Positions 14,511 through 62,372 are shown, counted from the stretch's first letter. The stretch is 64,000 nucleotides of DNA from an uncultured delta proteobacterium (GCA_963705165.1 CAVPJD010000025.1:845-64844), one strand, 5' to 3'. Notes: a model not told the origin generated them from the sequence alone. Made by a program: numbers and translations.

Positions 14511-14556
14511 CTGGTCTATTCCGTCTGTTCCGTCTATTCGGTCTGTCTCCGTCAGC
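14511..14556. repeat. nonamer array TCCGTCTNT (sense-strand AGACGGA), immediately 5' of the SDR gene
   Basis: ctggtctat tccgtctgt tccgtctat tcggtctgtc tccgtcagc. Confidence 0.7.
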
Positions 14557-14560
14557 ACGA

Positions 14561-14649
14561 GGGGTACAGGTTCGGGTCTCGGGTATCGGCGAAAGATAGA
14601 TTCCTGACCTTTCTTCCCTATACCCTATACCCTATACCCTGTTACCTAT
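14561..14649. repeat. opposed heptamer arrays (GGGNNNN / CCCTNNN)
   Basis: ggggtac aggttcg ggtctcg ggtatcg, a spacer, then cctttct tccctat accctat accctat accctgt tacctat. The right array overlaps the porB stop. Confidence 0.7.
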
Positions 14650-15551
14650 TTCGATTCCGCCGCCTTCCGCTTGTACTCCTCCCAGCGATCGTCCACCCAG
14701 TCCTGGAGCTGGCTGAGCTGCTCGATGCTCATTTTCTTGAACCGTCCCTGCTTCTCCACGTAGTGCACCACGGGGAGCTTGTTGCCCTTCTCGGCGAGCG
14801 TCTTGCTGCGGCCGGTGAAGCGGAACTTTCCGTTCTCCATCTCGAAGAGCACGCACAGGCCCGTGTCGACGGCAAGCCGGCCGATGCGGACCGTGTCCTT
14901 CGTGGGGTACTGCCACCCCGGGGGGCAGGGCGTGTGGATGTGGATGAACCGCGTGCCCTTGATCCGCTTGGCCCGCACGAACTTGTCGTAGAGATCGAGC
15001 GGGTAGGCCGGCGTCGTCGTGGCGATGTAGGCGATCTGATGGGCCTCCATGATCTTGAGGAAGTCCTTCTTGTGCTGCTGCTTCGTGAGGACGGGGGTCG
15101 TCGTCGTGAGGGCCCCCATGGGGGTTGCGCTCGATCGCTGGGTGCCCGTGTTCATGTAGCCCTCGTTGTCGTAGGCCACGTAGATGAAGTCCGTCCCGCG
15201 CTCGGCAGCGCCCGAGAGGGCCTGGATGCCCATGTCGAAGGTGCCCCCGTCGCCGGCGAAGGCCACGACGGTCGTGTCCGTCCGGTTCAGGGCGGCAAGC
15301 CCCGCCACGAGCCCCGAGGCCGAGGCGGCCGTGCTCGCGAAGGTGCAGTTCACGCTGGGCACCATGACCGGCGTCAGGGGGTAGAGCCCGTGAAGGACGC
15401 ACAGGCAGCAGGCGGGCAGCGTCACGATCGTGTTTTCCCTCAGCGCCTTCAGGGCGAAGCGGTAGGCGATGGAGAGCCCGCAGCCCTGGCAGGCCCGCGT
15501 GCCGGGAAGGATGTATTCTTTCTCGTGGATCTTGAAAAGATTCTGCGGCAT
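14646..15551 (-). CDS. porB: 2-oxoacid (pyruvate-type):ferredoxin oxidoreductase beta subunit (TPP-binding)
   Basis: 301 aa, MPQNLFKIHEKEYILPGTRACQGCG... and the GDGGTFDMG TPP motif. Last gene of a gamma-delta-alpha-beta operon. Confidence 0.85.
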   Translation of the reverse strand: MPQNLFKIHEKEYILPGTRACQGCGLSIAYRFALKALRENTIVTLPACCLCVLHGLYPLTPVMVPSVNCTFASTAASASGLVAGLAALNRTDTTVVAFAGDGGTFDMGIQALSGAAERGTDFIYVAYDNEGYMNTGTQRSSATPMGALTTTTPVLTKQQHKKDFLKIMEAHQIAYIATTTPAYPLDLYDKFVRAKRIKGTRFIHIHTPCPPGWQYPTKDTVRIGRLAVDTGLCVLFEMENGKFRFTGRSKTLAEKGNKLPVVHYVEKQGRFKKMSIEQLSQLQDWVDDRWEEYKRKAAESK

Positions 15552-15555
15552 AGCT

Positions 15556-16764
15556 CTACTCCGTCTGGCAGTTCAGCCAAGTGGTTACCAGCTCCCGTTC
15601 GCCGGCCTGGATCCGGGCAAGCGACGCCTTGACGGCCTCGACAAGCTCCCTTGCCTTCACGTCACGGCCGCCGAGGCCCGCCACGTGATCGTGGATGGCC
15701 GCATGGATGCCGCTTCCGTAGAAGGCGGCCTTGAGATCCGAGCACAGCCCCCCTTCGTAGCCGTAGCTGATGCTCTTTTCGAAGAGGATGATGGCCTTGG
15801 CATTGCGGTAGGCCTCGATGACGTCCTGTTTCGGGAAGGGCCGGAATACGCGGATCCCTACCACACCCGCCTTGATCCCCTCCTCGCGCAGGGCGTCGGC
15901 GGCCACCGTCGCCTCGGCGGCCAGCGACCCCATGCTCGTGAGGATGACATCGGCATCCTCCGTCCGGTACTTCCAGAGCATCCCGCCGTGGTCGCGCCCG
16001 AAGGCCTCCGCATACTGGCGGCTCACCTCGCGGATCGTCTCCGGGGTCCTGTCGAGGGCACTCTGCAGCTTGCAGCGCATCTCCATATAGCCGTCGCAGA
16101 GCACCCCTTCGCTGTTGGGACGCCTGTTGGGAAGCAGCACCGAGTTGATGGTCATCGGGTTTTCCGAATCGAGGATCGTGTGGGGTTTGTAGGGCGGGAG
16201 AAATTTCCTCACCGCCGCAGGAGTTGGGGAAACAACGGGCATCATCGTGTGGGAGAGCACGAAGCCGTCGTAGCAGACCATGACGGGCGCATAGACCGTC
16301 TCGGCGATCTTGTAGGCCTGGATCACCGTGTCGAGGATTTCCTGGTTGTCGCGGCAATAGATCTGGATCCAGCCCGTGTCGCGCTGGGCGAGCGAGTCCT
16401 GCTGGTCGTTGAAGATGGACCAGGGGGCCCCCACGCCGCGGTTGACGCAGCACATGACGATGGGGAGCCTCGATCCCGCCGCCCAGTGCAGCTGCTCGTG
16501 CATGTAGAGAAGCCCGTTTGCGCTGGTGGCCGTGAAGACCCGGGCGCCCACGGTAGAGGCCGAAATGCAGACCGTCATGGCCGAGTGCTCGCTTTCGACC
16601 CGCACGTACTCGGCGCGCAGCTGACCGCTTTCCACGTACAGGGAGAGCATCTCGGCAAGCTGCGACTGGGGGGTGATCGGGTAGGCGGCGATGACCTGGA
16701 CGTCGCAGAGCCTTGCCGCCAGCGCCGCAGCCTGGTTTCCGGTGATGATGCGCGCGTCAGTCAT
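15556..16764 (-). CDS. porA: 2-oxoacid:ferredoxin oxidoreductase alpha subunit
   Basis: 402 aa, MTDARIITGNQAAALAARLCDVQVIAAYPITPQS..., a typical PorA/VorA N-terminus. Confidence 0.85.
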   Translation of the reverse strand: MTDARIITGNQAAALAARLCDVQVIAAYPITPQSQLAEMLSLYVESGQLRAEYVRVESEHSAMTVCISASTVGARVFTATSANGLLYMHEQLHWAAGSRLPIVMCCVNRGVGAPWSIFNDQQDSLAQRDTGWIQIYCRDNQEILDTVIQAYKIAETVYAPVMVCYDGFVLSHTMMPVVSPTPAAVRKFLPPYKPHTILDSENPMTINSVLLPNRRPNSEGVLCDGYMEMRCKLQSALDRTPETIREVSRQYAEAFGRDHGGMLWKYRTEDADVILTSMGSLAAEATVAADALREEGIKAGVVGIRVFRPFPKQDVIEAYRNAKAIILFEKSISYGYEGGLCSDLKAAFYGSGIHAAIHDHVAGLGGRDVKARELVEAVKASLARIQAGERELVTTWLNCQTE

Positions 16765-17050
16765 TGCACTTGTCCTCCCTCACCATGCTGATGGCCCTCG
16801 ACGGGCACTCCTCGGCACAGATCCCGCAGCCCTTGCAGTAATCGAGGTCGATCTCGACGGGAATCCCCGCCTTGACAATCCCCTCGGGACAGTAGAGCCA
16901 GCACAGGTAGCAGGCGGCCTTCTTCTTGACGAAGGGCGTGCACTTGCTGTTGTCGATAATGGGCCGAAGGTCTCGCCAGTCGCCGGTCCTTCCCGCCTCG
17001 CCGACGGCGGGCTTGCACATGGCCGAGATGTTCTCGTCTTTTTTCTTCAT
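16757..17050 (-). CDS. porD: 2-oxoacid:ferredoxin oxidoreductase delta subunit (2x[4Fe-4S] ferredoxin)
   Basis: 97 aa with CxxCxxCxxCP-type motifs (CYLCWLYCP, CKGCGICAEECP). Overlaps the porA start by 8 nt. Confidence 0.85.
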   Translation of the reverse strand: MKKKDENISAMCKPAVGEAGRTGDWRDLRPIIDNSKCTPFVKKKAACYLCWLYCPEGIVKAGIPVEIDLDYCKGCGICAEECPSRAISMVREDKCND

Positions 17051-17091
17051 GATGGGTCCCTCTACCTCTTCGTGGTCGATTCTGACTTCAC

Positions 17092-17233
17092 GGCATAAGG
17101 CTTAAGGCTAAGGGCTTAAGGTAAAAGGAAGGAGATGACCCTCGTTCTATTCTGTTCTTCACCATAAGCCATAAGCCTTATGCCCTATGCCATTCCTTAC
17201 TCGCCTTTTGCCTTAAGCCCCAAGCCTTACGCC
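17092..17233. repeat. opposed heptamer arrays filling the porG-porD spacer
   Basis: ggcataa ggcttaa ggctaag ggcttaa ggtaaaa ggaagga (17092..17133), a 30-nt spacer, then ten NNNNGCC units ataagcc ataagcc ttatgcc ctatgcc ... ttaagcc ccaagcc ttacgcc (17164..17233). Confidence 0.75.
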
Positions 17234-17793
17234 TTTCTATTTATGATCGTTCCCTCGTAGGCCGCGCGCACCGTCTCGAAGTTCTGCGATGCCACCGCCG
17301 CGGGGAGCTTGCTGCGAAGGGCCTTCTCGATGTTCTCCAGGGAGACGATCCCTGTGGCCTTCGCGAAGGCGCCCAGCAGCGGTGTGTTGATCACGGGGGC
17401 GCCTTCCTTCGTGAGACGAAGCTTGAGGGCAACGCCGGTGGCATCAACGGTGGCCACATCGAAATCGCCGCTGATGCCCGCGTCTTCCGGCTTGCAGGCG
17501 GTATTGATGATGATCGTCCCGCCCTTTCGGACCCGCCCCTTCACGTCGACGACGCCGAGGAGCGTGTCGTCCAGGACAATGGCGATATCGGCCATCTCGA
17601 CCTGGGAAAACATCCGGATGGGGTCCTTCGAAATCCGCGTCGATGCCGTGACGGGCGCCCCGCGCCTCTCAGGGCCGAAGGTCGGCGCCGAGGTGACGCC
17701 CTTGAAGCCCTCCAGGTATGCCGACTCCGCCAGGATCTGGGCTGCAACCACGGCGCCCTGACCGCCACGACCGAACCAGATGACTTCTTTCAT
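17227..17793 (-). CDS. porG: 2-oxoacid:ferredoxin oxidoreductase gamma subunit
   Basis: ORF trimmed to ATG 17793 (GGGAGGAG upstream): MKEVIWFGRGGQGAVVAAQILAE..., a typical gamma subunit. Confidence 0.8.
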   Translation of the reverse strand: MKEVIWFGRGGQGAVVAAQILAESAYLEGFKGVTSAPTFGPERRGAPVTASTRISKDPIRMFSQVEMADIAIVLDDTLLGVVDVKGRVRKGGTIIINTACKPEDAGISGDFDVATVDATGVALKLRLTKEGAPVINTPLLGAFAKATGIVSLENIEKALRSKLPAAVASQNFETVRAAYEGTIINRKA

Positions 17794-17823
17794 CGCTCCT
17801 CCCGTTACGCCTGTTGCCAGAAG

Positions 17824-17862
17824 GCACAAAAAAAGGCCATGAGCTTTTTGCCCATGGCCTTT
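17824..17862 (-). terminator. strong intrinsic terminator 31 nt upstream of the porG start codon (attenuator or sRNA terminator)
   Basis: Minus strand reads AAAGGCCATGGGC-aaaaa-GCTCATGGCCTTT then TTTTGTG. That is a 13-bp stem (one G-U pair) with a 7-T run. Confidence 0.7.
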
Positions 17863-18022
17863 AGAATTTCGTCTTCGAGTCCCTAAATTCTAAAAACGAC
17901 GGGCGATCGGTATGCCAGTAGAAGCAGGAGCAGAGCGAGTCGCAACAACCCGTTCAGGTTCAAAAGCTCACTTCTTGCACCGATCGTCGTCATTCTCGGG
18001 GTAACCCTCACAAAGTAGAACT

Positions 18023-18051
18023 TAAATATCGGAAAGGATTCGGATTGTCAA
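18023..18051 (-). promoter_or_regulatory. candidate sigma70-type promoter driving the por leader RNA
   Basis: Minus strand reads TTGACA (18051..18046), a 17-nt spacer, then TATTTA (18028..18023). Confidence 0.5.
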
Positions 18052-18061
18052 TAACAAAATA

Positions 18062-18285
18062 GGCATCAGGCATCAGGCGTCAGGAAAGGAAAAGCACTCT
18101 GCTTTCCGATGCCGGGAGGCCTCCTGCGCCGAACCCGTCGAGTTCAGGACAGGCATCGCGTACCCGTTGTTTATGCAAGCATCAGGCCTGTTCGGGATGA
18201 ACGATACCCGGCAGAAGGCCGACAGTTCACCTTTCGGGGCCGTCTTGCCTTTTGCCTGATGCCTTTTGCCTGATGCCCAGTGCCC
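18062..18285. repeat. opposed heptamer arrays about 160 nt apart (GGCATCA / TGATGCC)
   Basis: ggcatca ggcatca ggcgtca gg (18062..18084) and cttgccttttgcctgatgccttttgcctgatgcccagtgcc (18244..18285). The latter encodes the waaA C-terminal tail. Confidence 0.65.
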
Positions 18286-19585
18286 GGACGATCATCCCCG
18301 CATAGCGCTCTGCGGCGCCGCGGCTCGCCAGGACGCGCTTCTGGCCTTCCATTCCTCGGCGCCTGAGCTCTGCGGGATCGCAGAGCATCGCTTTCATGCC
18401 CGCAAGGAGTTCCTCGGCGTTTCGGACCGGGATGCCCGCGCCGGCCTCTTCCAGGAGGGCCTTCTCGTCGAGGAAGTCCTCCATGGATGGCCCGTAAAAG
18501 ACGACCTTCCCCCAGGCGGCCGGTTCCAGGATATTCTGCCCTCCCTTTGCCACAAGGCTTCCCCCGCAATAGACGACGGTGGCCAGGCTGTACAGACCGA
18601 ACAACTCGCCGATCACATCGACGACGACGACGCCCCGGTCGGGCGGCCCCCCCTCAAGGATCTCGCTCATTAGGACACCGGTAAGCCCCTGGGCCGCCAC
18701 CAGGTCGCGCACGGCCTTTCCCCTCTCGGGGTGACGGGGCACGATGATGAGCCGCAAATCGGGCCACTCCTGCAGCAGCGCCCGGTACACCTCGAGGACA
18801 ATGGCCTCCTCCCCTTCGTGCGTGCTGCCCGCCACGAACACCCGGGTGTCCGGCGTCATCTTCATCTGGGCGGCTTTCCGGGACCAGACCTCGCCGCTCA
18901 CCCTCGAGGCGAGGCTGTCGTACTTGGCGTTCCCCATGACCTTCACGTTCGCCGCGGGAGCGCCAATGGCCAGGATGCGTTCCCTGTCCACCGCGGAGAT
19001 CACCCCGATTTCGAGGACTGACGCCAGGACTTTTTTCCAGAAGAACGCCGTCCGTGAGTAACGACGGAACGACCGGGGTGAAATCCGGCCGTTCACCATG
19101 ACGGCGGGGATGCGGCGCTTCATGCAGTGCCGGAGAAAGTTGGGCCAGAGCTCCGTTTCCGTCAGGACGACGATATCGGGGGCGATCCGGTCGATCACTT
19201 TTTTCACGACCGGAAAGAGGTCGAGGGGAAAATACATGAATGCCGTGGCCTGGGGGATCAACTTGCGCGCCATGGCCTGGCCCGTCTCCGTGCCGGTGGA
19301 AAGGACGATACTGGCCTGGGGGAGCTTCCCCCACAGGGCGGCAACGATGGGGGCCGCCGCCGTGACCTCGCCCACGGAGACGGCATGGACCCAGATCCGC
19401 GGATGGCCCTTGAGAGCGGAAATCGTTTCGTCGGGTATGTCCCCCAGCTTCTGCCAGATGCTCTGACGGTACTTTCCCGCCACAAGGATCTTGAATGCGT
19501 AATACGGCGCCAGGAGCAGGAAGCCCAAGAGAGCGGTGATGTTGTAAAGTACGTGAAGCACCGCCCGACGATAATGCGGTTTCAA
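18227..19585 (-). CDS. waaA: 3-deoxy-D-manno-octulosonic acid (Kdo) transferase
   Basis: 452 aa. N-terminal membrane anchor, then RIWVHAVSVGEVTAAAPIV and a GSTHEGEE-type motif. The last ~15 residues are translated heptamer repeats. Confidence 0.85.
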   Translation of the reverse strand: MKPHYRRAVLHVLYNITALLGFLLLAPYYAFKILVAGKYRQSIWQKLGDIPDETISALKGHPRIWVHAVSVGEVTAAAPIVAALWGKLPQASIVLSTGTETGQAMARKLIPQATAFMYFPLDLFPVVKKVIDRIAPDIVVLTETELWPNFLRHCMKRRIPAVMVNGRISPRSFRRYSRTAFFWKKVLASVLEIGVISAVDRERILAIGAPAANVKVMGNAKYDSLASRVSGEVWSRKAAQMKMTPDTRVFVAGSTHEGEEAIVLEVYRALLQEWPDLRLIIVPRHPERGKAVRDLVAAQGLTGVLMSEILEGGPPDRGVVVVDVIGELFGLYSLATVVYCGGSLVAKGGQNILEPAAWGKVVFYGPSMEDFLDEKALLEEAGAGIPVRNAEELLAGMKAMLCDPAELRRRGMEGQKRVLASRGAAERYAGMIVRALGIRQKASGKRQDGPER

Positions 19586-19662
19586 TACACTGTCAAGTTT
19601 GCATTATCAATTTTTCAAGCCTGGCGAGTCAACGGACGCACAGGGTCATGGGTTTGCACTAC

Positions 19663-19758
19663 GGCATAAGGCTTAGGGCATATGGCTCAGGGTAAGAATG
19701 GATTTTGCCTTTTGCCATGAGCCTTCTGCCCTAAGCCGTTTGGTTCGCCTTAAGCCAT
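19663..19758. repeat. opposed heptamer arrays in the waaA / lipoprotein divergent spacer
   Basis: ggcataa ggcttag ggcatat ggctcag ggtaaga, a 7-nt spacer, then ttgcctt ttgccat gagcctt ctgccct aagccgt ...gccttaagcc. Confidence 0.7.
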
Positions 19759-19864
19759 CTGTTGTAATTGACATCGCCCCGGTAATATTGTAGGTTGGGT
19801 TCGCTCCCCAAAGAGCCTGAAATCACGGAAGAATAACCATCGATGAGAACGGAGAGCGCATTTC

Positions 19865-21385: not shown

Positions 21386-21400
21386 AGATGCGTCTACGAA

Positions 21401-23025: not shown

Positions 23026-23032
23026 TTTTTAT

Positions 23033-34726: not shown

Positions 34727-34888
34727 GGAGGAGGGGAGGAAGTTAAGAGGTTAAGAGGGTAAGAAGGTAAGAAGGTCGAAGAAGAGGAGGGAAAGAAGCT
34801 GAGAGGGTGAGAAGGTCGGACAGGCAGGGGGCCAGCGATTGACTGCCGGCTGATCCAACCTTCTTACCCTCTTACCCTCTCAACCTCT
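34727..34888. repeat. long purine-rich heptamer array (GGTAAGA family) with an opposed partner
   Basis: gggaggaggggaggaagttaagaggttaagagggtaagaaggtaagaaggtcgaagaagaggagggaaagaagctgagagggtgagaaggtcgg, a spacer, then ccaaccttcttaccctcttaccctctcaacctc. Confidence 0.7.
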
Positions 34889-36397: not shown

Positions 36398-36474
36398 GAG
36401 TCTGTTCCGTCTATTCGGTCTGTTCCGTCTTAGTCTTTCCGGTCTATCCCGTCTATCAGTCTGTTCCGCCTGTA
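36398..36474. repeat. nonamer array TCCGTCTNT abutting the DUF39 start
   Basis: gagtctgt tccgtctat tcggtctgt tccgtctta gtctttcc ggtctatc ccgtctatc agtctgt tccgcctgt. Confidence 0.7.
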
Positions 36475-36506
36475 AGAGCCGGAATGCCATTCATGTACCG
36501 TTTCCA

Positions 36507-36538
36507 AACTTCCTATCTTCTTAACTTCCTAACTTCAC
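36507..36538. repeat. heptamer array (TCTTACC / CTTCCTA family)
   Basis: aacttcc tatcttc ttaactt cctaact tcacg. Confidence 0.55.
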
Positions 36539-36599
36539 GTATTTCCCGCTTTATTAGACTATTTTAAAACCAGTTGTCCAACAGAAATGCGGGAAATAC
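36539..36599. promoter_or_regulatory. perfect 11-bp inverted repeat enclosing a 39-nt AT-rich segment (dut / DUF39 spacer)
   Basis: GTATTTCCCGC (36539..36549) and GCGGGAAATAC (36589..36599). The loop is tttattagactattttaaaaccagttgtccaacagaaat. Confidence 0.5.
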
Positions 36600-36616: not shown

Positions 36617-37067
36617 TTATTGGCCCGTGTGGCCGAAACCGCCGCTTCCGCGGGCCGTGTCCGACAAGCCCTGCCTGAAGTCCCAGATGACCCGGGAGAA
36701 GGGCGCCACGACCATCTGGGCGATCCGGTCGCCCCGCCGCACCACGAAAGGCTCGGTACCATGATTGATCAGGATGATCCGGATTTCACCGCGGTAATCG
36801 GCGTCGATCGTGCCCGGCGTGTTCACGAGCGTCACCCCGTTTTTCAGGGCCAGGCCGCTCCTGAGGCCGGATCTGGGCCTCGTAGCCCTCCGGCAGGGCG
36901 ATGGCGATTCCCGTGGGGACGAGGGCCCGCTCACCCGGGGCGATGACGATTTGAGCCTCTACGGCGGCAACGATGTCCATCCCCGCCGCATGCTCCGTCA
37001 TGTAGCGTGGAAGGGGAAGATCCTCCGACCCGCCCAACCGCTCAATGGCCACACGTACCGATTCCAT
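36617..37067 (-). CDS. dut: dUTP diphosphatase, apparent single-base frameshift
   Basis: N-terminal part from ORF 36786..37070 ([11 protein letters not shown]...[17 protein letters not shown]...). C-terminal part from ORF 36617..36934 ([35 protein letters not shown]...GSGGFGHTG). They join at [17 protein letters not shown] and need one base removed near 36862. Confidence 0.85.
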
Positions 37068-37071
37068 CAAA

Positions 37072-37123
37072 CTCGTCTGTTTCGTTCTTTTCGTTTATTT
37101 CGTTGGTTTCGTCAGTCGCTGAT
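37072..37123. repeat. nonamer array (T-rich variant TTCGTNNNT) just 5' of dut
   Basis: ctcgtctgt ttcgttctt ttcgtttat ttcgttggt ttcgtcagt cgc. Confidence 0.6.
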
Positions 37124-37140
37124 GCGACAGGCCAAAGGCT

Positions 37141-37222
37141 GCAGTCCACAGGCTACAGGCTAAAAAAATGAAAAACGGAATTTCTGCCGTCTGCGGCCTG
37201 TTGCCTGTTGCCTGTTGCCTTA
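37141..37222. repeat. opposed heptamer arrays (CAGGCTA / CTGTTGC)
   Basis: gcagtcca caggcta caggcta, a spacer, then ctgcggc ctgttgc ctgttgc ctgttgc ctta. The right arm touches the M16 peptidase stop. Confidence 0.7.
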
Positions 37223-42015: not shown

Positions 42016-42969
42016 CGGCCACCGTTTTTGATTGCATCAAAGAGCTTTCTCTTCACCGTGTCGCCGTCTCCCTGGATCCGGCAGGCCGCGGCATTGATGT
42101 GACCGCCGCCCCCGAACTTGCCGGCCACCTGTTCGACGTTGAACCGCCCCTTGGAGCGAAGGCTCACCTTGTAGAGGCCTTCGGTGATCTCGCTGAAGAA
42201 GACGGCCACCTGCACGCCCTCGATGGAGCGCGGGTACTCGACAAACCCTTCCGTGTGCTCCCACTGGGCGCCCGCTTCGTCGAGCATCCTCTTCGACACG
42301 GTGAGCGGCCGCAATCCGGCCCTGCCAGTCGAACTCCAGGGTCGAGAGCGCCCGGGACAGCAGACGGATCTTCGCGGCCGGAAAGGTCTCGTAGACCATC
42401 TGGGCGATCCATGCGGGATCGGCCCCTTTCTCCAGCAGCCGGCCGGCGACGGCAAAGGTTTGCGGCCCCGTGTTCGAATACCGGAAGGCCCCCGTGTCGG
42501 TCAGGATCGCCGTGTAGAGGTTGACGGCCATATCCTTTGTGATCTCGAGGCCCATCCCGTCGACGAGGCGGAAGATCATCTCGCCGGTGGAGCTTGCCTC
42601 GGGGTCGGTGAGCGTCAGGTTCCCGTAGTGGTCGTTCGAGATATGATGATCGATGTTGATGATCTGCCGGATCCCGGCGATCCGCGAGGCCTCTTCCCCC
42701 GCGCGCTCGATCTCGCTGCAGTCGAGGACAAAGACGGCGTCAAAGCCATCCAGCGGGCCCAGCCGGTTCACGATGACCCCCGCGTCGGGCAGAAACGAAT
42801 ACATCTGCGGCGTCCGGTCCTGGTTGTAAACCACGACTTCCTTCCCCAGGCCCCGGAGCGCCTCGTAGAGGGCGAGCTCCGAGCCCACGGCATCGCCGTC
42901 GAGCCTCATGTGGGAGGTCACGAGGAAGGTGCGGCCCTTCTTGATGATTTCAGCGATCTGTTGGATCAT
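42012..42969 (-). CDS. nrnA: DHH-family oligoribonuclease/pAp phosphatase NrnA-like, apparent frameshift
   Basis: N-terminal part from ORF 42037..42969 (...FLVTSHMRLDGDAVGSELAL...INIDHHISN...). C-terminal DHHA1 part from ORF 42012..42455 (...FGGGGHINAAACRI...). The junction LEFDWQGRIAA/LTVSKRMLDEAG lies near 42308, inside a GCGGCCGC context. Stop overlaps the truB start. Confidence 0.8.
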
Positions 42970-43327
42970 CCGTTTCGTCTTTTTCGTCTTTTCGTACTTC
43001 TTTCAGCAGCTTCTCGATCCGCGACCCGTATTCGAAGGAGGGGTCGTAGAAGAAGGCAAGCTCCGGGATGTAGCGAAGCTGCAGCCTCTTGCCCAGCTCC
43101 CGCTTGAGAAACCCCTTGGCCTTCGAGAGCCCCTTCTCGACATCGGCGCTCAGGCTGTCCTTGCCGAGCTCGACGAAGTAGATGCGGGCGGAGCGAAGGT
43201 CGTCGGTGAGCTTGACGTCCGTCACGGTGATATTGGCAATCCTCGGGTCGCCGACCTCCCGCCGCAGGATGTTGGAAATCTCCTGCTTGATCAGATCCGC
43301 AACCCGGTCAGCTCTCTTGAAATCCAT
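42950..43327 (-). CDS. rbfA: ribosome-binding factor A
   Basis: 125 aa, ...RADRVADLIKQEISNILRREVGDPRI...VKLTDDLRSARIYF. Confidence 0.9.
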   Translation of the reverse strand: MDFKRADRVADLIKQEISNILRREVGDPRIANITVTDVKLTDDLRSARIYFVELGKDSLSADVEKGLSKAKGFLKRELGKRLQLRYIPELAFFYDPSFEYGSRIEKLLKEVRKDEKDETDDPTDR

Positions 43328-43652
43328 CGGGCAGCGCCCCCCCGTCGTAACGGCCCGCCAGGTCGGAGTAGTTCGTGATCTCCCTGCGGACGTTGACGAC
43401 CTCGGCCAAGTGGAGATTGTCGACGAAATTCAGGATCATTTCCATCTTCGAGTCCACGAAACTCCGGTCGTTTCCCACGACGGCAAACCCGATGATGCCC
43501 TGTTTCAAGTTGTCGTGCCCGTCGACCTCGGCAATCGAGACATTGAACTCGTTCTGCGTGCGCCGGATCAGGCTCTTCATCACACCCCGCTTCTCCTTCA
43601 GGGAGCGGCTCTCGTGGATGTACACCTCGATGATCCCGACACCTACAACCAT
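43308..43652 (-). CDS. DUF503-family protein (YlxP-like)
   Basis: 114 aa, MVVGVGIIEVYIHESRSLKEKRGVMKSLIRR... In the conserved position between infB and rbfA. Confidence 0.8.
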   Translation of the reverse strand: MVVGVGIIEVYIHESRSLKEKRGVMKSLIRRTQNEFNVSIAEVDGHDNLKQGIIGFAVVGNDRSFVDSKMEMILNFVDNLHLAEVVNVRREITNYSDLAGRYDGGALPDGFQES

Positions 43653-43752
43653 GGTCTATCCCGTCTGTCCGGTCCATCCGGTCTATCCCGTCCCTCCGGT
43701 TCTTTTCTTCGACCGAATAGACTGGATAGACGGGACGACTGGATAGACGTCT
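43653..43752. repeat. opposed nonamer arrays filling the infB / DUF503 spacer
   Basis: ggtctatc ccgtctgtc cggtccatc cggtctatc ccgtccctc cggttc, a spacer, then gaccgaatagac tggatagac gggacgac tggatagac gtctg. Confidence 0.75.
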
Positions 43753-43753: not shown

Positions 43754-46368
43754 TTAGAGCTTTCTCTCGATCTGCTCCATGATGTACGCCTCAATCACAT
43801 CGCCCACCCGGATGTCGTTGTAGCCCTCGATGCCGAGGCCGCAGTCCATGCCGGCGGCCACTTCCTTCGCGTCGTCCTTGAAGCGCTTGAGCGATGCGAT
43901 CTTGCCGTCGTAGAGGACCACCCCGTCGCGCACCAGCTTGACCTTGGCGCTGCGGGGGATCTTTCCGTCCGTCACGTGGCAGCCCGCCACGGTGCCGACC
44001 TTGATGATGCGGAAGGTTTCCCGCACCTCGGCGCGCCCCTGGACGACTTCCTTGAACTCGGGTTCCAGCAGGCCTTCCATGGCATCGTGGATGTCGTTGA
44101 TGGCGTTGTAGATGACGTCGTAGAGCTTGATCTCGACGCCTTCCTTCTCGGCGATCTCGACGACGCGGGCATCGGGCCTCACCTTGAAGCCCAGGATGAT
44201 GGCGTCGGAGGCCGAGGCCAGCATGACGTCCGTCTCGGTGACGGCGCCCGTGGAGCTGTGGATGAGCTTCAGCTTGATCTCGTCGGTGGAGAGCTTGTTG
44301 AGGGCCTCGCTCAGGGCCTCGAGGGATCCCTGGACGTCGGCCTTGAGGATCACGTTGAGATCCTTGGCGCCTTCCTTGATCCGCTGGTAGAGCTGCTCCA
44401 GGGTGATCTTGGAGGAGGCCGCCAGCTCCTTCTCGCGCTCCTTGCGGACCCAGTACTCGCTGATGTTCTTGGCCTTTTTCTCGTCCTCGACGCCGATGAA
44501 CTCGGAGCCCGCCTGGGGAACGCTGGAGAAGCCGATGACCTCCACGGGCATGGAGGGGCCGGCCTCCTTGACGCGCTGCCCCTGGTCGTTGATCATGGCG
44601 CGCACGCGGCCGTACTCCGTCTTCGCGGAGAAGGCATCTCCCTCGCGCAGGGTCCCTTCCTGGATGAGGACGGTTGCCACGGGGCCCCGTCCCTTGTCGA
44701 GCTTGGCCTCGATGATGATGCCGCGGGCCGGACGGTCCGGGTCGGCCTTCAGCTCGAGGACGTCGGCCTGCAGGAGGATGAGCTCCAGCAGGTTCTCGAT
44801 GCCGATCTTCTTCTTCGCCGAGATGTCGGCAAAGAGCGAATCGCCGCCCCAGTCCTCCGACGTGAGGTTGTGCTGGGCCAGTTCCTGCTTGATCCGGTCG
44901 GGGGTGGCGTTGGGCTTGTCGATCTTGTTGACGGCCACGATGATGGGCACGCCGGCCGAGCGCGAGTGGTTGATGGCCTCCACGGTCTGTTCCATGACGC
45001 CGTCGTCGGCGGCCACGACGAGGATGACGATGTCCGTCACCTTGGCGCCGCGGGCGCGCATGGCCGTAAAGGCCTCGTGTCCCGGCGTGTCCAGGAAGAC
45101 GATGTCGCGGTCCTTGACGTGGACGTGGTAGGCGCCGATGGCCTGCGTGATGCCGCCGGCCTCGCCGTCGATGACGTTGGTCTGGCGGATGGCATCCAGC
45201 AGCGACGTCTTGCCGTGGTCGACGTGGCCCATGACGGTGACAACGGGCGCCCTGGGCTTCAGGTTGCGGGGCTCCGCCTCGGTGCGCTGCAGCATCTCGT
45301 CGTACTCGGCCGTCACGGCCTCCACCTGGTAGCCGAACTCGGCGGCGATGAGGCTTGCGGCATCGATATCGATGGACTGGTTGATGGTGGCCATCGTGCC
45401 CAGGCCGAGAAGCTTGTTGATGACGTCGCTTGCGCGCACGCCCATCTGCTTGGCCAGCTCGCCCACCCGGATGGCCTCCGAGATCCGGATCCGCCGCTTG
45501 CTCGCCTTGGGGACCGTGATCTCCGTCTTCTTCATCTTGACGACGGCGGCCTTCTTGTCGCCCCTCCAGCGTGCGGCCTCCTCCTCCTCGATCTCCCGGA
45601 GCCGGCCCTCTCTTGTCTTTCTTGTCGATGACCCGCTTGATCATCGTTCTCTTCTTGGTGGCCACCCCGTCCATGACCACCTCGACGCCGCGCTTGCCTT
45701 TCCTGTCGGCCGTGGGTGCGGCTCCCCTCGATTGGCGTCGGCACCGGCAGGCGGGGCCGCCTGGCCACGGGGCTGCGCGGGCTGCCCCGCGGCCGGTTTC
45801 CGGATCTGCGTCTGCGGGATTGTGGCGGCAGGGGGCCTTGGCCCTTCCTTCTTCTCGACGGGTTCGGGCCGGCGAATGATCTGGGCCTGGCGGGAAAGAT
45901 CGGGCTCCTTCTTCGGCGCCGGCTCGGGTTTCACGGGCGCCTTTTCGGAAGCGGGAGGCGCCGCAGCAGCCGGCGGTTCTTCCGCCCTCGGCTCGAGCGG
46001 CTTCTCCGGTTTCTCGACTTTCTCGACTTTTACTTCCTTTTCTACTTTCTCTTCCTTTTCGACTTTCTCGACTTCGGCGCGGCTTCGGGGGCGGCGGCTT
46101 CCTCGGGCTCGGCGGCTTCCTCGGCCTCGGCGGCCTCCTCGGGCAGACGGACGGCCCTTCTGCGAATGACCGTCGATTTGACGCGCTTCTCGACGACCTC
46201 CTTTTCGCCCTTGGCGGATAACTCGCGGCGGACCCGCTCGACCTCGCTGTCCTCAAGAGTGCTGGAGTGGGATTTGACGGCAATGCCAAGGTTTTTCAGC
46301 TTCGCGATGAACTCCTTGTTCTCGATCCCGAACTCCTTGGCCAGTTCGTATACTCTCATCTTGGACAT
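43754..46368 (-). CDS. infB: translation initiation factor IF-2, with at least 3 apparent frameshifts in the N-terminal low-complexity linker
   Basis: The G-domain to the C-terminus is intact in ORF 43754..45535 ([26 protein letters not shown]). The N-terminus is in ORF 46042..46368 ([29 protein letters not shown]...). The linker continues in the frame of 45641..45934 ([17 protein letters not shown]...[10 protein letters not shown]...), then in a further frame ([33 protein letters not shown]). Shifts lie near 46075, 45700-45740 and 45600-45640. Confidence 0.9.
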
Positions 46369-56467: not shown

Positions 56468-56840
56468 CGAAACCCGCACGTGATTCCGATCAAAGAACTG
56501 GAACCGGATTGGGTGCAGAAGAAAACCAAGCCCGGCATCTTCAGTCAACCCGACGAGTCACATACTGAAGACTGGCATCCTTTTAATGGGTCTATACGAT
56601 CCGCGTATTGGTTTGCCCACCGAAGCCATTTGTCGAGTTCGCTGCCGGCTTTTTTCAAGACCGTCTCCAGTGACCATGGGATGTGTATGGTGCGGACATG
56701 TCCGGCCCTCTTCCTTGCAATTATGCATTTGAAATGCATGATTGCAGGGAATATTGGCGGCTGCGTTCCTCGCATTCGGGACACTCAGAATCTATTTTCA
56801 TCAGGCGGCGGGCGATGCCGTGCGGACCATGCTGCGGCAA

Positions 56841-56880
56841 TAAAAAAGGGGCCCTGCAAGCTGCGGGGTCCCTTTGTTTG
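56841..56880 (-). terminator. hairpin terminator after tRNA-Gly (U-tracts on both strands)
   Basis: GGGGCCCTGCA-agc-TGCGGGGTCCC, an 11-bp stem with 2 G-U pairs. Flanked by AATAAAAAA and TTTGTTTG. Confidence 0.6.
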
Positions 56881-56893
56881 ATCCGGATAAAAA

Positions 56894-56968
56894 TGGAGCG
56901 GGCGATGGGATTCGAACCCACGACTTTCAGCTTGGGAAGCTGACATTCTGCCACTGAATTACGCCCGC
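56894..56968 (-). tRNA. tRNA-Gly (anticodon CCC) with encoded CCA
   Basis: Minus strand reads gcgggcg ta attc agtggca gaat g tcagc ttCCCaa gctga aagtc gtggg ttcgaat cccat cgcccgc t cca. Full cloverleaf, 75 nt. Confidence 0.9.
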
Positions 56969-57015
56969 TCTTCTCATCTGTCTCGTCTATTTCGTCGTCT
57001 GTCGTTTCGTCTCCC
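56969..57015. repeat. nonamer array (TCGTCTNT variant) abutting the 5' end of tRNA-Gly
   Basis: tcttctcatc tgtctcgtc tatttcgtc gtctgtcgt ttcgtctcc cc. Confidence 0.6.
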
Positions 57016-57092
57016 CGGCTGTCGCCGGGACCTTGAAGACGACATCAAAGAACTTGAAGGAAGCAGAGTTTAATAACTCCAGGCAAAATTTG

Positions 57093-58388
57093 TCAAGATT
57101 TTTTTGCCCTTAGCCTCGCCAGGATGGACTTTCCGTGGGCGTCGAGCCCTTCCATCGCGGCAAACTCCGCCGCAGCTTTCCCGTATTTCGCGAGCGATTC
57201 CCCGTCGAAGGAAAGCACGCTGATGCGCTTCACGAAATCGTAGACCCCCAGCGGCGAGGAAAATCGTGCCGTGCCCCCCGTGGGAAGGATGTGGTTGGGG
57301 CCCGCCAGGTAGTCGCCCAGGGCCTCGGGGGTGTAGTGCCCGAGGAAGACGGCTCCGGCGTTTCGGATCCCGGCGAGGAGCTTCTTCGGGTCCTTCACGA
57401 GAAGCTCCAGGTGCTCCGGCGCAAAGCGGTTTGCCACCTCGACGGCCTCCGCCAGGTCCTGCGTCACGACAACGAGCCCGTAATCTCTTATCGCCTTCAC
57501 GGCGATGGACTCCCTCGAGAGAAGCTTGAGCTGTGCCTTGATCTCGGCCGACACCCGTTTCGCGAGGTCCTCGTCGGGCGTGAGCAAAACGGAGCTTGCC
57601 AGCTCGTCGTGCTCGGCCTGGGAGAGCAGATCGGCCGCTGCAACAGCGGGATCGGCTGTCCTGTCCGCGATGATGAGGATCTCGCTGGGGCCCGCGATCA
57701 TGTCGATCCCCGTGCGTCCGAAGACGAGCTTCTTGGCCGTGGCCACCCAGGCGTTGCCCGGCCCCACGATCTTGTCGACGGCCGGGACGGACTGCGTCCC
57801 ATAGGCCATGGCCGCCACGGCCTGGGCGCCGCCCACCTTGAAGATCCGGTCGACGCCGGCGATCTGCGCCGCTGCGACGATGATGGGATTGAGGCCTCCT
57901 CTACCCACGGGGCTTGTCATGATGATCTCCCGGACCCCGGCGATCCTCGCGGGAATGGCCGCCATGAGAACCGTCGAGGGATAGGACGCAAGCCCCCCCG
58001 GGGCGTAGACCCCCACCCGGGAAAGGGGAACGATCTTCTGCCCCAGTTCGACGCCCCCTTCCCGGTAGGACCAGGAGGCAAGGCGCTGACGCTTGTGGTA
58101 TCGGTCTATGCGCCTGGCCGCAAGGGTCAGAACAGCCCGTTCCTTCTTCGTGACACTGCACAGGGCCTCCCGGATCTCGAGGGGCGAAACCTCGACGGTC
58201 TTTGCCGTCAGCGTCACGCCATCGAAGCGCTTCGTGTAGCCGAAAAGGGCCCTGTCGCCTCTTTTCTCCACGTCCTGGAGAATGGCTGAAACCTTCTTCT
58301 CGAAGGCCGGGTCGAAGGACTTCCCACGGTTGACGATCCTCTTGAATTCCTTTTCGAACCCCTTGTCCGCTGTCCTTATGATTTTCAT
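57093..58388 (-). CDS. hisD: histidinol dehydrogenase
   Basis: 431 aa, ...VGVYAPGGLASYPSTVLM...SQAEHDELA...APEHLEL... Confidence 0.95.
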   Translation of the reverse strand: MKIIRTADKGFEKEFKRIVNRGKSFDPAFEKKVSAILQDVEKRGDRALFGYTKRFDGVTLTAKTVEVSPLEIREALCSVTKKERAVLTLAARRIDRYHKRQRLASWSYREGGVELGQKIVPLSRVGVYAPGGLASYPSTVLMAAIPARIAGVREIIMTSPVGRGGLNPIIVAAAQIAGVDRIFKVGGAQAVAAMAYGTQSVPAVDKIVGPGNAWVATAKKLVFGRTGIDMIAGPSEILIIADRTADPAVAAADLLSQAEHDELASSVLLTPDEDLAKRVSAEIKAQLKLLSRESIAVKAIRDYGLVVVTQDLAEAVEVANRFAPEHLELLVKDPKKLLAGIRNAGAVFLGHYTPEALGDYLAGPNHILPTGGTARFSSPLGVYDFVKRISVLSFDGESLAKYGKAAAEFAAMEGLDAHGKSILARLRAKKS

Positions 58389-58392
58389 CTTC

Positions 58393-58418
58393 CGGCCCTT
58401 TGCCTTTTGCCCTGCGCC

Positions 58419-58427
<9 letters not shown>
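58393..58427. repeat. heptamer array NNGCCYT x5 in the murA-hisD junction
   Basis: cggccct ttgcctt ttgccct gcgccct aagcctt. Overlaps the murA stop. Confidence 0.7.
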
Positions 58428-59672
<1,245 letters not shown>

Positions 59673-59728
59673 GAGAATTATCTCCTGAAAAGTTGAAAAT
59701 TATTTCAGCGACAGAATGCCTCAGTGTG

Positions 59729-59810
59729 GTCATTCCCGCGAAGCTTGTCCTCGCGAAGGCGGGGAGCGGGAATCCAGAAAGACTGGATGCCGGATCAGGT
59801 CCGGCATGAC
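59729..59810. repeat. GTCAT...ATGAC double-hairpin palindromic element (subfamily A, with an internal insertion)
   Basis: gtcattcccgcgaagcttgtcctcgcgaaggcggggagcgggaatccagaaagactggatgccggatcaggtccggcatgac. Confidence 0.6.
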
Positions 59811-59847
59811 ATCCGTATAATCTCATCAATATAAAGAATCTCAAACG

Positions 59848-59885
59848 TGGATCGCCACGCCTCGCAAGGTTCGGCTCGCGATGAC
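59848..59885. repeat. right-half copy of the subfamily B palindromic element
   Basis: tggatcgccacgcctcgcaaggttcggctcgcgatgac. Confidence 0.45.
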
Positions 59886-59977
59886 TATTTTGTTAATACG
59901 GCCGCGGCGAAGTGAGTGTTAAAACGTCGAAAAGCGCTTTTGAGCCGGCAAAATCTTTGCCTCGTTCTTCAACATTA

Positions 59978-60858
59978 TTATAATAAATTTTTCCGCCGCG
60001 CAATCACCACCCGATCGAGGCCGGCGTAGTCGGCCCGGAAACGGATGTCATCGAAGATCTTTGTCTCTTCCAGAATCATTGTGAGGGCCAAACGCTGCTC
60101 CGCCCCCATCTCCATGAGGAGCCACCCGCCGGGCTTGAGCCTCTCCCGCGCCCCTTCAGCGATGCGGCGGTGGAACTCGGTCCCCTCGGGCCCCGCCACA
60201 AGGGCCTGACGCGGCTCGTAGAGCGTCACCTCGCGGGCCAGTGTCGCGTACTCGGCCTCGCTGATGTAGGGCGGGTTGGAGCAGACCATGTCGAAGCCCC
60301 CTCGACACCCTCGTAGAGATCGCCCTGCAGAAAGGTGATTCTTGTGTCCGGGCCGAGGAGTCTCTTGGCATTTTCGCGGGCCACCTCGAGGGCGGCTGCC
60401 GAAAGTTCCGTTGCCGCTATATCGCAGTCGGGCCATTCCGACGCCACGGCAATGCAGACGGCGCCCGAGCCCGCCCCGATGTCCAGGATCCGGGGGCTCG
60501 AGCCGCGGAACAAGTCACGGAGCCTCAGCACTTCCTCGACAAGGCACTCTGTCTCGGGTCTCGGAACGAGCACGGCAGGGGTTACGGTGAAATCGAGGGA
60601 CCAGAACTCGCGCCAGCCCCGGATGTAGGCCATGGGCTCACGGCGCTTGCGCCTCCCGGTCAGCACGAGGACCCGGTTGATCTGCTCGTCGTCAAGCTCG
60701 AGCGAGAGGTCCCGGTACAGATCGGCGCGTTCCTTGCCAAGGCAGAAACCGAGCAGGACCTCGGCATCGAGCCGCGGGGTTTCGATGCCCGCCCTTTCGA
60801 ATACCTCGGTGAGGCGGGAGAGAATCCGGGCGATGGAGCGTTTGTCTTCCCCTGACAT
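59978..60858 (-). CDS. prmC: release-factor glutamine N5-methyltransferase PrmC, apparent frameshift in a G/C homopolymer
   Basis: N-terminal part from ORF 60226..60885 (start probably ATG 60858; ...ILDIGAGSGAVCIAVA...). C-terminal part from ORF 59978..60436 (FDMVCSNPPYI...). The junction GDLYEGVEG/FDMVCSNPPY lies at the C5 run 60297..60301. Confidence 0.85.
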
Positions 60859-60938
60859 TCCCTGATCCTTTCGAGCACCTGACACCGGTTGTACACGGGG
60901 TTATCGATGGAAGATACCGTCTGCCCAGGAAAACTAAT

Positions 60939-60969
60939 GTCATCGCGAGGGCGAAGCCCGTGGCGACCT
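60939..60969. repeat. left-half copy of the subfamily B palindromic element
   Basis: gtcatcgcgagggcgaagcccgtggcgacct. Confidence 0.4.
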
Positions 60970-61020
60970 GCGGTTAGATGATTGTCGAGCACGCTATCAA
61001 GAATACTCTACGGAAGATCC

Positions 61021-62163
61021 TCACCCACAACCTCTCTCCCCTCGAAAGGTAGAGACAGGCGACTGGACTCGCCAAGTGAGAAGGAACTCTTTTTCAGGCG
61101 CCGTATTTTTCAACGCCTCCGTCTGGTAATAATTCGTGAGCGCGTCGATGATCGGCTGGATATCCCCGTCCAGGATGGACTGGAAATTGTAGAGGGTGAG
61201 CCCGATGCGGTGGTCCGTCATGCGGCCCTGGGGAAAGTTGTAGGTCCGGATGCGCTCGCTGCGGTCGCCTGATCCCACCTGCTTGCGGCGGGCCTCGGAC
61301 ATCTGGGCGTCGCTTTCGGCCTGCATCTTGTCCAGGAGCCTCGCCCGCAGGACCTTCATGCCCTTGTTCTTGTTCTTGAGCTGGGACTTCTCGTCCTGGC
61401 AGCTCACGACGAGGCCCGTGGGGATGTGGGTCAGCCGCACGGCCGAGTCCGTCGTGTTCACGCTCTGGCCGCCGTGGCCGCCCGAGCGGAAGACATCCAC
61501 CCGGATCTCGTTGGGGTCGATATGGACCTCCACATCTTCGGCCTCGGGAAGCACGGCCACCGTGACGGCCGAGGTGTGGATCCGGCCCTGGGCCTCGGTG
61601 ACGGGCACGCGCTGGACCCGGTGCACGCCGCTTTCGTACTTGAGGCGGCTGTAGGCGCCCCGGCCCTCGATCATGGCAATGACTTCCTTGAAGCCGCCCA
61701 TACCCGATGCCGCGCTGGAACTCAGGACATCCACCCTCCAGCCCGACATCTCGGCAAAGCGCGCGTACATGCGGAAAAGATCGGCGGCAAAAAGTCCCGC
61801 CTCGTCTCCACCGGTTCCTGCCCGGATCTCCAGGATCACGTTTTTGTCGTCGTTTGGATCTTTCGGCAGCAGCAGGACGGTGATACGCCGCTCGAGCTCC
61901 TCGACCCTCGCCTTGAGCTGGGGGATCTCCTCCTTGGCCATCTCCCGGAGCTCCTCGTCGCCGTCGCGCAGCATCTGCTGGGCCTCGTCGAGCTGACGGC
62001 CCGTTATTTCGTAGTCCCTGAAGGCCTCGATAAGCGACGTGAGATCAGAGTGCTCCTTGGCCAGCTTCTGGTACTCGGAGCGGTTGGCGATCACGGCGGG
62101 ATCGCTCAAGAGCCTCTCCAGCTCCTCGTATCGCTTTTCAATGTCTTTGATACGCTGAAACAT
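61021..62163 (-). CDS. prfA: peptide chain release factor 1
   Basis: 380 aa, [22 protein letters not shown]...RVQRVPVTE...[12 protein letters not shown] (GGQ)... The C-terminus looks about 15-20 aa longer than I would expect for RF1. Confidence 0.95.
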
Positions 62164-62372
62164 GTCACTCGTTTCCGTTTTTTCGTTATGGCTGATGAAG
62201 GGGGTGCCGCTTTCGGGGCGGCCAGGGCGCGGAAAGACACCGTTTCAGTGCGCTAGAGGAAATGGCACCTCAGGTGAGGGGAAACCATCGGGCGAAGCAT
62301 CGATGTCATGGCGGTTCGTTTCGGGATGATGAGAAGGAATCGCCCCGCTGCGATCGGCAACGGGGCGTCCTG

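Follow-up and report, generated by a model that had tools for sequence, protein, structure and literature searches.

Several bacterial groups (cyanobacteria, Xanthomonas, Beggiatoaceae, and Geobacter) are known to carry short tandem repeats with a fixed orientation at gene ends, and no function has been proven for any of these repeats. Here we describe arrays of a 9-nt unit (nonamer) with an AGAC core, which were noticed in a 64,000-nt stretch of DNA from an uncultured delta proteobacterium (GCA_963705165.1 CAVPJD010000025.1:845-64844, i.e., G000:C25:845-64844; hereafter the window, with positions counted from its first letter). The closest precedent is provided by the TAACTGA repeats of marine Beggiatoaceae, which are heptamer direct repeats of 2–6 copies at ~170 loci (MacGregor 2015, PMC4679880). 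These mostly forward repeats end 1 nt before start codons and cover the ribosome-binding position, 132 of the 170 sets occur without a ribosome-binding site, and 12 of the 170 are directed "toward stop codon" (PMC4679880). The genes that they lead are housekeeping genes with no common function, their phylogenetic distribution is patchy, and S1, Csp, and CsrA were proposed as readers, with the function unproven (PMC4679880). The nonamers are similar in that they are tandem, mostly forward, located a few nt from the start, patchily distributed, and accompanied by an under-representation of the Shine-Dalgarno (SD) sequence. However, this is a likeness in kind and not homology, as the unit is 9 nt and not 7 nt long, has another sequence, and is degenerate at four of its nine positions. 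The nonamers also occur in a different phylum, their spacers additionally hold hairpin arrays of 7- and 8-nt units, and the class that abuts stop codons in antisense is much larger (15/38, compared to 12/170).

The GGGNATC heptamers of Xanthomonas and Nostoc are intergenic and polar toward the nearest open reading frame (ORF), whatever its orientation (Rehm et al. 2015, PMC4692102). On one strand they precede an ORF by ≤50 bp, and on the other they follow its stop by ≤50 bp; they are mostly transcribed and are under-represented between divergent ORFs. The units are G-rich and quadruplex-forming, and sets of four are preferred (PMC4692102). Together with the cyanobacterial STRR heptamers, they share the ORF polarity and the depletion in divergent spacers with the nonamers. 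In contrast to the nonamers, whose purine-rich strand points toward the gene, the G-rich strand of GGGNATC points away from it, and the AGAC units have no G-runs and hence no quadruplex G-tracts. In Geobacter metallireducens, which belongs to the same phylum as the nonamer-bearing genomes, multicopy nucleotide sequences of classes 1–3 consist of 3–5 tandem units of 7–9 nt (Aklujkar et al. 2009, PMC2700814). The sites are mostly arranged as opposite-strand pairs at variable distance, and class 2 has the consensus TCTCCGTS[Y] (PMC2700814). These repeats occur in one species and not in sister species; binding of IHF/HU was proposed, and the function is unknown (PMC2700814). Their unit sequence differs from that of the nonamers, and they are mostly paired with no reported abutment of start codons, whereas ~55 of the 58 nonamer arrays are solitary. 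The nonamers add a well-defined case to these systems, with a 9-nt unit of clear core, orthologous sites that can be followed through >20 genomes, and a covarying hairpin that connects a stop with a start.

The nonamer family and its polarity toward ORF boundaries

The G000 genome (2.71 Mb, 59.8% G+C, 35 contigs) is 84% complete, and its nearest named relatives by prfA comparison were Syntrophales-like metagenome-assembled genomes (Smithella, Syntrophaceae) with 65–71% identity. The initial annotation had listed seven loci of the window where a nonamer array with the consensus TCCGTCTNT abuts the 5′ end of a gene. Period-9 repeats were found on the plus strand at all seven positions, and most of them were called by Tandem Repeats Finder (TRF). 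The literal consensus (TCYGTCTNT) was not enriched by itself genome-wide, with 4 matches compared to 3.2 expected, and the literal search was therefore replaced by a scan of the whole 2.71-Mb genome with a position-weight matrix and a period-9 chain rule. A first regular-expression scan and its reversed-sequence control were dropped, because the reversed unit still holds AGAC and the control was thus contaminated; other periods and local shuffles served as controls instead. G000 was found to contain ~60 arrays of 3–9 copies: the period-9 scan returned 58, whereas other periods under an equal rule returned 0–4, and locally shuffled sequence returned 1.

The sense unit is A-Y-A-G/A-A-C-B-R-R, where positions 1, 3, 4, 5, and 6 are conserved at 80–95% and the other four are variable. 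The conserved element is therefore the GTCT(R)T / A-Y-A-G-A-C core together with the 9-nt register, and not the repeated ACGGA that had been emphasized initially. The AACGAAA-type units and the AGACSGR-type (AGACSGR/AGACCGG) units are one family, as either variant may be found at orthologous sites of different species. The G000 genome is unusually rich in intergenic arrays, with 656, 310, and 436 TRF rows for periods 7, 8, and 9, respectively. The period-7 and period-8 rows are mostly intergenic, and the nonamers are a class distinct from them. A literature search for the exact AGAC array sequences found no paper. The nonamers are a real, statistically solid, lineage-restricted, and fast-evolving family of oriented intergenic tandem repeats.

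To describe their position, we defined the head of an array as the 3′ end of its AGAC strand and measured the distances to ORF boundaries, which could be evaluated for 54 of the 58 arrays. The ORFs were called by codon-usage log-odds with greedy selection, and the starts were refined by SD and start-codon weights. The head was located ≤25 nt from an ORF boundary in 34/54 arrays and the tail in only 1/54. The head was the nearer end in 44/54 arrays (p = 3e-6), with median distances of 16 nt for heads and 136 nt for tails. The abutted boundary was the start of a co-directional gene in 23 cases and the stop codon of a convergent gene on the opposite strand in 15 (18 before filtering). The statement that the arrays always lie at a 5′ end in the sense orientation thus held for ~60% of the boundary arrays (23/38), while the remaining 15/38 abut convergent stops in antisense. 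Arrays within 40 nt of a start are almost always in the sense orientation, with 23 approaching it by the head and 1 by the tail. In general, the AGAC strand is directed into the neighboring ORF, be it at a start or at a convergent stop.

In about half of the start-abutting arrays, the repeat extends to the start and leaves no space for an SD sequence. The start-abutting arrays lie downstream of a co-directional gene in 21/23 cases, and they are depleted in divergent spacers (2/23, compared to 38% expected, p = 0.002). For all 38 boundary arrays, a co-directional gene was found upstream in 30 (79%, p = 1e-4). Of the 16 stop-side ORFs, at least 12 appear to be genuine: 6 have Pfam domains (an MBL-fold protein, DivIC, DUF2284, a radical SAM protein, PNPOx, and PyrF), and 6 were judged by eye only (PpiD-like, NtrC-like, DctP-like, and other proteins). 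The composition of start-side and stop-side arrays is alike, except for slightly more T on the stop side. For annotation, it is relevant that the arrays are non-coding but, as reading frames run through them uninterrupted, lead to inflated ORF predictions, and that they are hotspots of difference between assemblies.

Conservation, turnover, and the infB-DUF503 hairpin

To count arrays in other genomes, we used the strict pattern (AYAGACNNN)x2-AYAGAC. The pattern occurred in all 21 other genomes of the family, which comprise two genera, and in 1 of the 19 other families of the order. Within the order, we regard the nonamers as restricted to one of 20 families and not as widespread in Syntrophales. 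The number of matches per congener ranged from 2 to 124. Across the phylum, the distribution is patchy: 26 of 400 sampled genomes contained the pattern, and it was abundant in families f34 (3/3 genomes) and f44 (4/7) and in one f51 genome. In the f44 genome G064, heads lay beside ORF ends in 6/7 arrays and tails in 1/7. In the f34 genome G131, the arrays were embedded in other repeats, and heads abutted ORF ends in 3/12 and tails in 0/12.

Within the family, the sites themselves are well conserved. Upstream of the SDR gene, an array occupied the same place in 16/17 orthologous loci from both genera, at a protein identity of 81–83%. An array of 3–8 units, of either AGACSGR or AACGAAA type, abutted the TTG/GTG start of DUF39 in 13/13 genomes of the genus, while in the sister genus this gene has an ATG start and the array was absent (4/4). 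The dut array was present in ~8/10 genus genomes with readable upstream sequence and absent in G013, G012, and G016. For tRNA-Gly, two leader alleles were found in 18 relatives, interspersed among the species and both located behind TTGACA, which is conserved in 18/18. The long allele (11/18 genomes) has a ~90-nt leader with a GC hairpin and an AGAC array, and the short allele (7/18) has a ~35-nt leader without the hairpin and the array.

In contrast to their positions, the arrays themselves change rapidly. When G000 was compared with its close relative G013, three repeat spacers were 30–50% identical and the dut spacer was replaced, whereas coding DNA was mostly 97–100% identical, which shows that the arrays turn over far faster than by point substitution. 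The unit adjoining the ORF tends to stay fixed, as seen by eye in the alignments of DUF39 and SDR/tRNA-Gly. Position is therefore held across the family while copy number and unit variant change far faster than coding DNA. Natural alleles with and without the array exist for the tRNA-Gly leader and, in near-identical genomes, for the dut spacer, and they make the function testable.

The spacer between infB and DUF503 contains a second array, missed in the initial annotation, which is inverted relative to the one that runs into DUF503. Its AGAC strand is the plus strand, so that the infB mRNA carries GUCU, and a few nt separate its beginning from the infB stop codon (43754-43756). Its reverse-complement score was 41, compared to 31 for the 99th percentile of the control. 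The full form, consisting of the stop, 1–6 nt, a GTCT-type arm, a short loop, an AGAC-type arm, and the ATG, was present in 16/20 family genomes. The exceptions were G014 (interrupted by Ns), G009 (degenerate), and G019 and G020, which carry a hairpin of a different, TGGAATA(A/T)-type unit at this site. The unit types of the two arms covary (TCCGGTC/GACCGGA, TTTGGTC/GACCAAA, and TTTCGTT/AACGAAA), and every spacer that was folded gave a long hairpin (z −2.5 to −10). Arms from the same genome were predicted to pair better than arms from different genomes (−40.0 compared to −30.5 kcal/mol, p = 0.002). The hairpin consists of 8-pair stems split by a single 1-nt bulge or mismatch every ~9 nt, and in nearly every genome the arms are complementary at 8 of the 9 unit positions. 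This spacer is a clear exception: only ~3/58 arrays are accompanied within 250 nt by a reverse-complement partner that exceeds the 95th percentile of the control, and a REP/BIME-like hairpin arm was rejected as a general explanation for the arrays.

Possible roles of the arrays

The reading that we tentatively prefer, at somewhat less than even confidence, is that the start-side arrays are transcribed into a purine-rich, structure-poor stretch of a leader or intercistronic spacer, which keeps the start open and serves as a ribosome standby platform. The arrays are probably transcribed, as suggested by the promoter-like motif upstream of the DUF39 array and by TTGACA-18-TAAACT upstream of the tRNA-Gly array. 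As part of an intercistronic spacer or leader, the purine-rich, U-poor sense strand would act as a structure-free spacer between the G+C-rich spacer hairpins and the ribosome-binding region. It would keep the start region open and offer a landing platform to 30S subunits, probably via an OB-fold RNA binder such as S1, and selection would act against the opposite orientation beside a start. Between infB and DUF503, where the upstream stop is followed by a GUCU-type partner, the two arrays may form a long bulged hairpin that joins stop and start. CsrA would play no part in this mechanism. Standby sites and unstructured 5′-leader enhancers, associated with de Smit and van Duin, reportedly consist of a single-stranded stretch 5′ of a structure-flanked ribosome-binding region. 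A structure-free stretch in this place is the property computed here for the nonamer arrays. To our knowledge, no standby site described so far belongs to a tandem-repeat family or is lineage-wide, and none has a conserved core motif.

Computed folding is consistent with an open start region, and thus with a secondary suggestion of the initial annotation, which had named standby sites. The region from −45 to +15 of array-led genes had a median predicted folding energy of −6.0 kcal/mol, compared to −11.4 kcal/mol for 1771 other genes (p = 4e-7). An SD sequence was present in 33% of array-led genes and in 55% of the others, although these values are approximate, since the caller rewards SD. Opening of the region from −18 to +6 was predicted to cost 6.1 kcal/mol with the native array, 9.9 kcal/mol with the array reverse-complemented (p = 0.001), and 9.7 kcal/mol with the array deleted (p = 0.0007).

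Several points weigh against this reading. A composition-matched shuffle was as open as the native array (6.8 compared to 6.1 kcal/mol, not significant), so accessibility does not account for the conservation of the AGAC core and the 9-nt register across distant families. Moreover, the accessibility effect arises partly by construction, as the array lies inside the scored window, and the gene starts, unlike the unambiguous stops, come from our own simple caller and are approximate. A translational role cannot apply to the 15–18 arrays that abut stops in antisense, nor to the one that precedes a tRNA. The arrays are also dispensable: the dut array is gone in G013 although the flanking coding DNA is mostly 97–100% identical, 7/18 relatives are without the tRNA-Gly module, and the complete congener genome G009 has only 2 strict-pattern matches. 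The models thus support an orientation-dependent role as a purine-rich unstructured spacer but leave the core and the stop-side class unexplained.

The main rival is a selfish or neutral hypervariable repeat without positive function, which we consider possible but rather unlikely. Such a repeat would be remodeled at the DNA level by slippage or by a nick-and-realign process that needs the AGAC/GTCT core, and its polarity would be a mere filter that removes harmful orientations, such as leaders with a pyrimidine-rich strand or stops closely followed by an SD-like, purine-rich one. The 30–50% identity of repeat spacers beside nearly identical coding DNA, whole modules swapped or lost between close relatives, the different unit type in the infB-DUF503 hairpin of G019 and G020, the range of 2 to 124 matches among congeners, the patchy presence in 26/400 phylum genomes, and the accessibility of the shuffled arrays are all in line with this explanation. 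It is less easily reconciled with the position kept at deep divergence (the 16/17 SDR loci), or with five near-invariant core positions beside four saturated ones, which call for selection or for a core-dependent mechanism. In addition, an ORF boundary is abutted within 25 nt in 35/54 arrays (34 heads and 1 tail), compared to ~38% expected by our own estimate. A more speculative proposal, which we regard as unlikely, is that the AYAGAC nonamer is recognized as a unit by a putative dedicated and horizontally mobile factor, either a protein that binds RNA or single-stranded DNA or an enzyme that expands and contracts the repeats. Such a factor would explain the near-invariant core beside saturated positions together with the patchy occurrence in at least four unrelated families and the extreme turnover. 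The arrays would then be a tunable, fast-evolving post-transcriptional layer over ~60–100 housekeeping genes per genome, and GUCU arrays in 3′ untranslated regions might even pair in trans with AGAC arrays in 5′ leaders.

The identical polarity at starts and stops tracks the ORF boundary and not the transcription direction of the abutted gene, which would suit binding sites in double-stranded DNA. Their protein, lineage-specific or acquired horizontally, would mark or insulate the ORF boundaries. Nucleoid-associated or IHF/HU-type proteins are candidates, as proposed for the similar G. metallireducens arrays (PMC2700814), and both the sequence-specific core kept across unrelated families and the head-to-ORF rule in the distant G064 (heads 6/7, tails 1/7) agree with such sites. 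We nevertheless judge them quite improbable: a 9-bp repeat does not keep phase with the DNA helix, the 79% of arrays with a co-directional gene upstream point to a link with transcription direction, the covarying bulged infB-DUF503 hairpin is better explained at the single-strand level, and no candidate protein was identified, though no phylogenetic profiling for a reader was made. A single rule for starts and stops would also be provided by Rho-related polarity, with the GUCU strand as a rut-like loading site on transcripts leaving genes and the AGAC strand as an anti-rut leader. The genome, and the window itself, encode rho, and the GUCU strand is ~70% pyrimidine and predicted to be unstructured, with an invariant UC every 9 nt; in stop-abutting arrays it contains 42% U, 27.5% C, and 20% G. 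YC dimers at regular spacing are known to characterize Rho-dependent terminators, but Escherichia coli Rho needs linkers of 9–13 nt between them, i.e., a period of 11–15 nt (PMC6144790). The 7-nt linker of the nonamers is shorter than that, the skew of C over G is weak, an ordinary intrinsic terminator lies behind several of the stop-abutting arrays, and start-side arrays would serve only against antisense transcripts, all of which makes this explanation very unlikely.

The leading hypothesis of the initial annotation, namely that spaced GGA motifs in leaders form CsrA/RsmA platforms, is close to refuted. At least two GGA are present in 28/58 arrays, and many arrays overlap the ribosome-binding region. 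However, GGA falls in the variable B-R-R positions outside the conserved core (0.37 per unit), it is absent from 20/58 arrays and from 9/23 start-abutting ones, and the arrays are predicted to be unstructured, so that GGA would not be displayed in hairpin loops. The CsrA family PF02599 had no match in G000 (84% complete) and matches in only 2/21 family genomes, although all 21 bear arrays; control genomes were positive.

Other roles were rejected. UP elements, which had also been suggested, and promoters do not fit, as the arrays run to the start codon or SD sequence, a promoter-like site was found in 1/24 array-led regions compared to 11% of genes, the unit does not match the −35/−10 spacing by our own inspection, and the arrays lie downstream of both promoter-like motifs identified. 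Canonical promoters and terminators are in use in G000, e.g., at tRNAs; the promoter scan called no site in the SDR and dut spacers. Pairing with 16S rRNA as a surrogate for SD was dismissed because the 3′ end of 16S rRNA is canonical (GGATCACCTCCTT) and has no complementarity to AGAC. The units do not code for an N-terminal repeat either, as an in-frame stop occurs ≤45 nt upstream of the start in 16/22 cases and units are also found past stops and before a tRNA. An excess of the phase that places TAG in frame (13/22, p = 0.04) is probably an ascertainment effect of the ORF caller and is not claimed. A general association with tRNAs was discarded, as the tRNA-Gly gene is the only one of 34 tRNAs in G000 that bears an array, which also weakens the earlier argument from this tRNA.

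Loci of the window and neighboring repeats

Strong arrays were present at four of the seven loci (14511, 36398, 37072, and 43653), the tRNA-Gly array was degenerate, and the nrnA and prfA loci are not arrays (Table 1). Pfam identified the genes at these loci as SDR, HcyBio (former DUF39), dUTPase, DHH/NrnA, RbfA, DUF503, PrfA, and HisD. That all seven loci are minus-sense is partly due to the gene distribution, as 50 of the ~60 genes called on this contig are on the minus strand.

Table 1. Positions of nonamer arrays and associated features in the window
Feature	Position	Strand	Found by period-9 scan	Description	Evidence
SDR nonamer array	14511..14556	-	14511-14546	4–5 units: ACAGACCGA ATAGACGGA ACAGACGGA ATAGACCAG	Period-9 scan, orthologues
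DUF39/HcyBio nonamer array	36398..36474	-	36406-36464 (two chains)	~8 units	Pfam HcyBio; scan, 13 orthologues
Octamer array	36502..36536	-		Sense GAAGTTAG x4; repeat class different from nonamers	
Promoter-like motif TTGGACA-N16-TCTAAT	36553..36581	-			13 orthologous upstream regions aligned by eye
dut nonamer array	37072..37123	-	37072-37116	AACGAAA variant, 5 units; 3′ end 4 nt before ATG (37067)	
nrnA locus, non-member	42967..42999	-		rbfA coding 3′ end (…KEVRKDE…) overlapping nrnA start	Pfam RBFA, DHH
infB-DUF503, AGAC hairpin arm	43653..43706	-	43651-43704	Strong array; runs straight into DUF503 ATG (43652)	
infB-DUF503, inverted partner array	43717..43750	+		AGAC on + strand, GUCU in infB mRNA	
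tRNA-Gly leader array	56969..57015	-		Degenerate: GAGACGAAA CGACAGACGACGAA ATAGACGAG ACAGATGAG; tRNA-Gly = 56897-56968	
Sigma-70-like promoter TTGACA-18-TAAACT	57067..57096	-		Upstream of tRNA-Gly array	10/12 consensus matches
prfA locus, doubtful	62164..62192	-		Two weak AACGRAAA-like units before ATG	

The SDR array is located between a heptamer hairpin and the SD sequence GGAGGG of the SDR gene (ATG at 14494). The DUF39 array abuts the TTG start (36397) of the HcyBio gene, where a canonical SD is absent. The octamer array upstream of it, in the same presumed leader, was found in most of the 13 genus genomes. The motif TTGGACA-N16-TCTAAT is kept across the genus and lies in the loop of the inverted repeat TATTTCCCGC...GCGGGAAATA (window 36540-36599). 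A strict consensus promoter scan did not call this motif, and its promoter status is inferred; if it is a promoter, the nonamer and octamer arrays of DUF39 would both lie in the 5′ untranslated region. Similar AT-rich loops (…GGTACTAnAGAT..TTTTATnAnCGAAATC…) are present in several heptamer hairpins elsewhere in G000, e.g., at C23:4376 and C27:2829, and promoters may therefore sit inside hairpin loops. The dut gene (window 36617-37070, minus strand) is split into two overlapping frames, 36786-37067 and 36617-36934. Alignment with G013 showed a 1-nt indel in the bin 36817-36876, which corresponds either to a frameshift (pseudogene) or to an assembly error in G000. With the sigma-70-like site upstream, the tRNA-Gly array would be transcribed in the pre-tRNA leader; this tRNA was the sole match in an Rfam scan of the window.

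The nrnA repeat was rejected as an array, as it is a 9-nt tandem duplication in G000 alone, with a single aaagacgaa in 15/15 genus relatives. The two weak units at prfA were below the threshold of the period-9 scan and were not recovered, and this locus was likewise rejected. The prfA motif is kept only in four close relatives (G010, G011, G014, and partly G005), while the others have unrelated sequence. The spacer upstream of prfA (62193-62372) contains a genus-conserved stretch of ~100 nt (…CCATTTCCTCTAGCGCACTGA…GGCCGCCCCGAAAGCGGCACCCCCTTCATC…) with a GC hairpin, for which Rfam gave no match and which may represent a leader or a terminator. In the N-terminal region of infB (46010-46144, minus strand), period-9/period-18 repeats with the sense unit GTCGAGAAA... 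occur in ~7 copies. They are coding low-complexity sequence and do not belong to the AGAC family.

Several long AGAC arrays of up to 9 units lie far from called ORFs, in gene-poor tracts of G000 at C9:108100-112800 and C21:22400-24120; the arrays at C9:108162 and C9:109101 are near-identical copies. Nearly every spacer, both in the window (4476-62816) and genome-wide, holds heptamer or octamer tandem arrays. These cluster after stops, and their G/purine-rich strand leaves the gene in 96–97% of cases, a purine polarity opposite to that of the nonamers. Seen by eye, they often form inverted pairs around an AT-rich center, e.g., 37127-37162 with 37196-37220 and 34744-34776 with 34858-34888. The rho gene (PF07497 match) is located at 62823-64070 on the minus strand, two ORFs upstream of prfA, and heptamer arrays lie directly past its stop codon (62778-62816 and 62723-62746).

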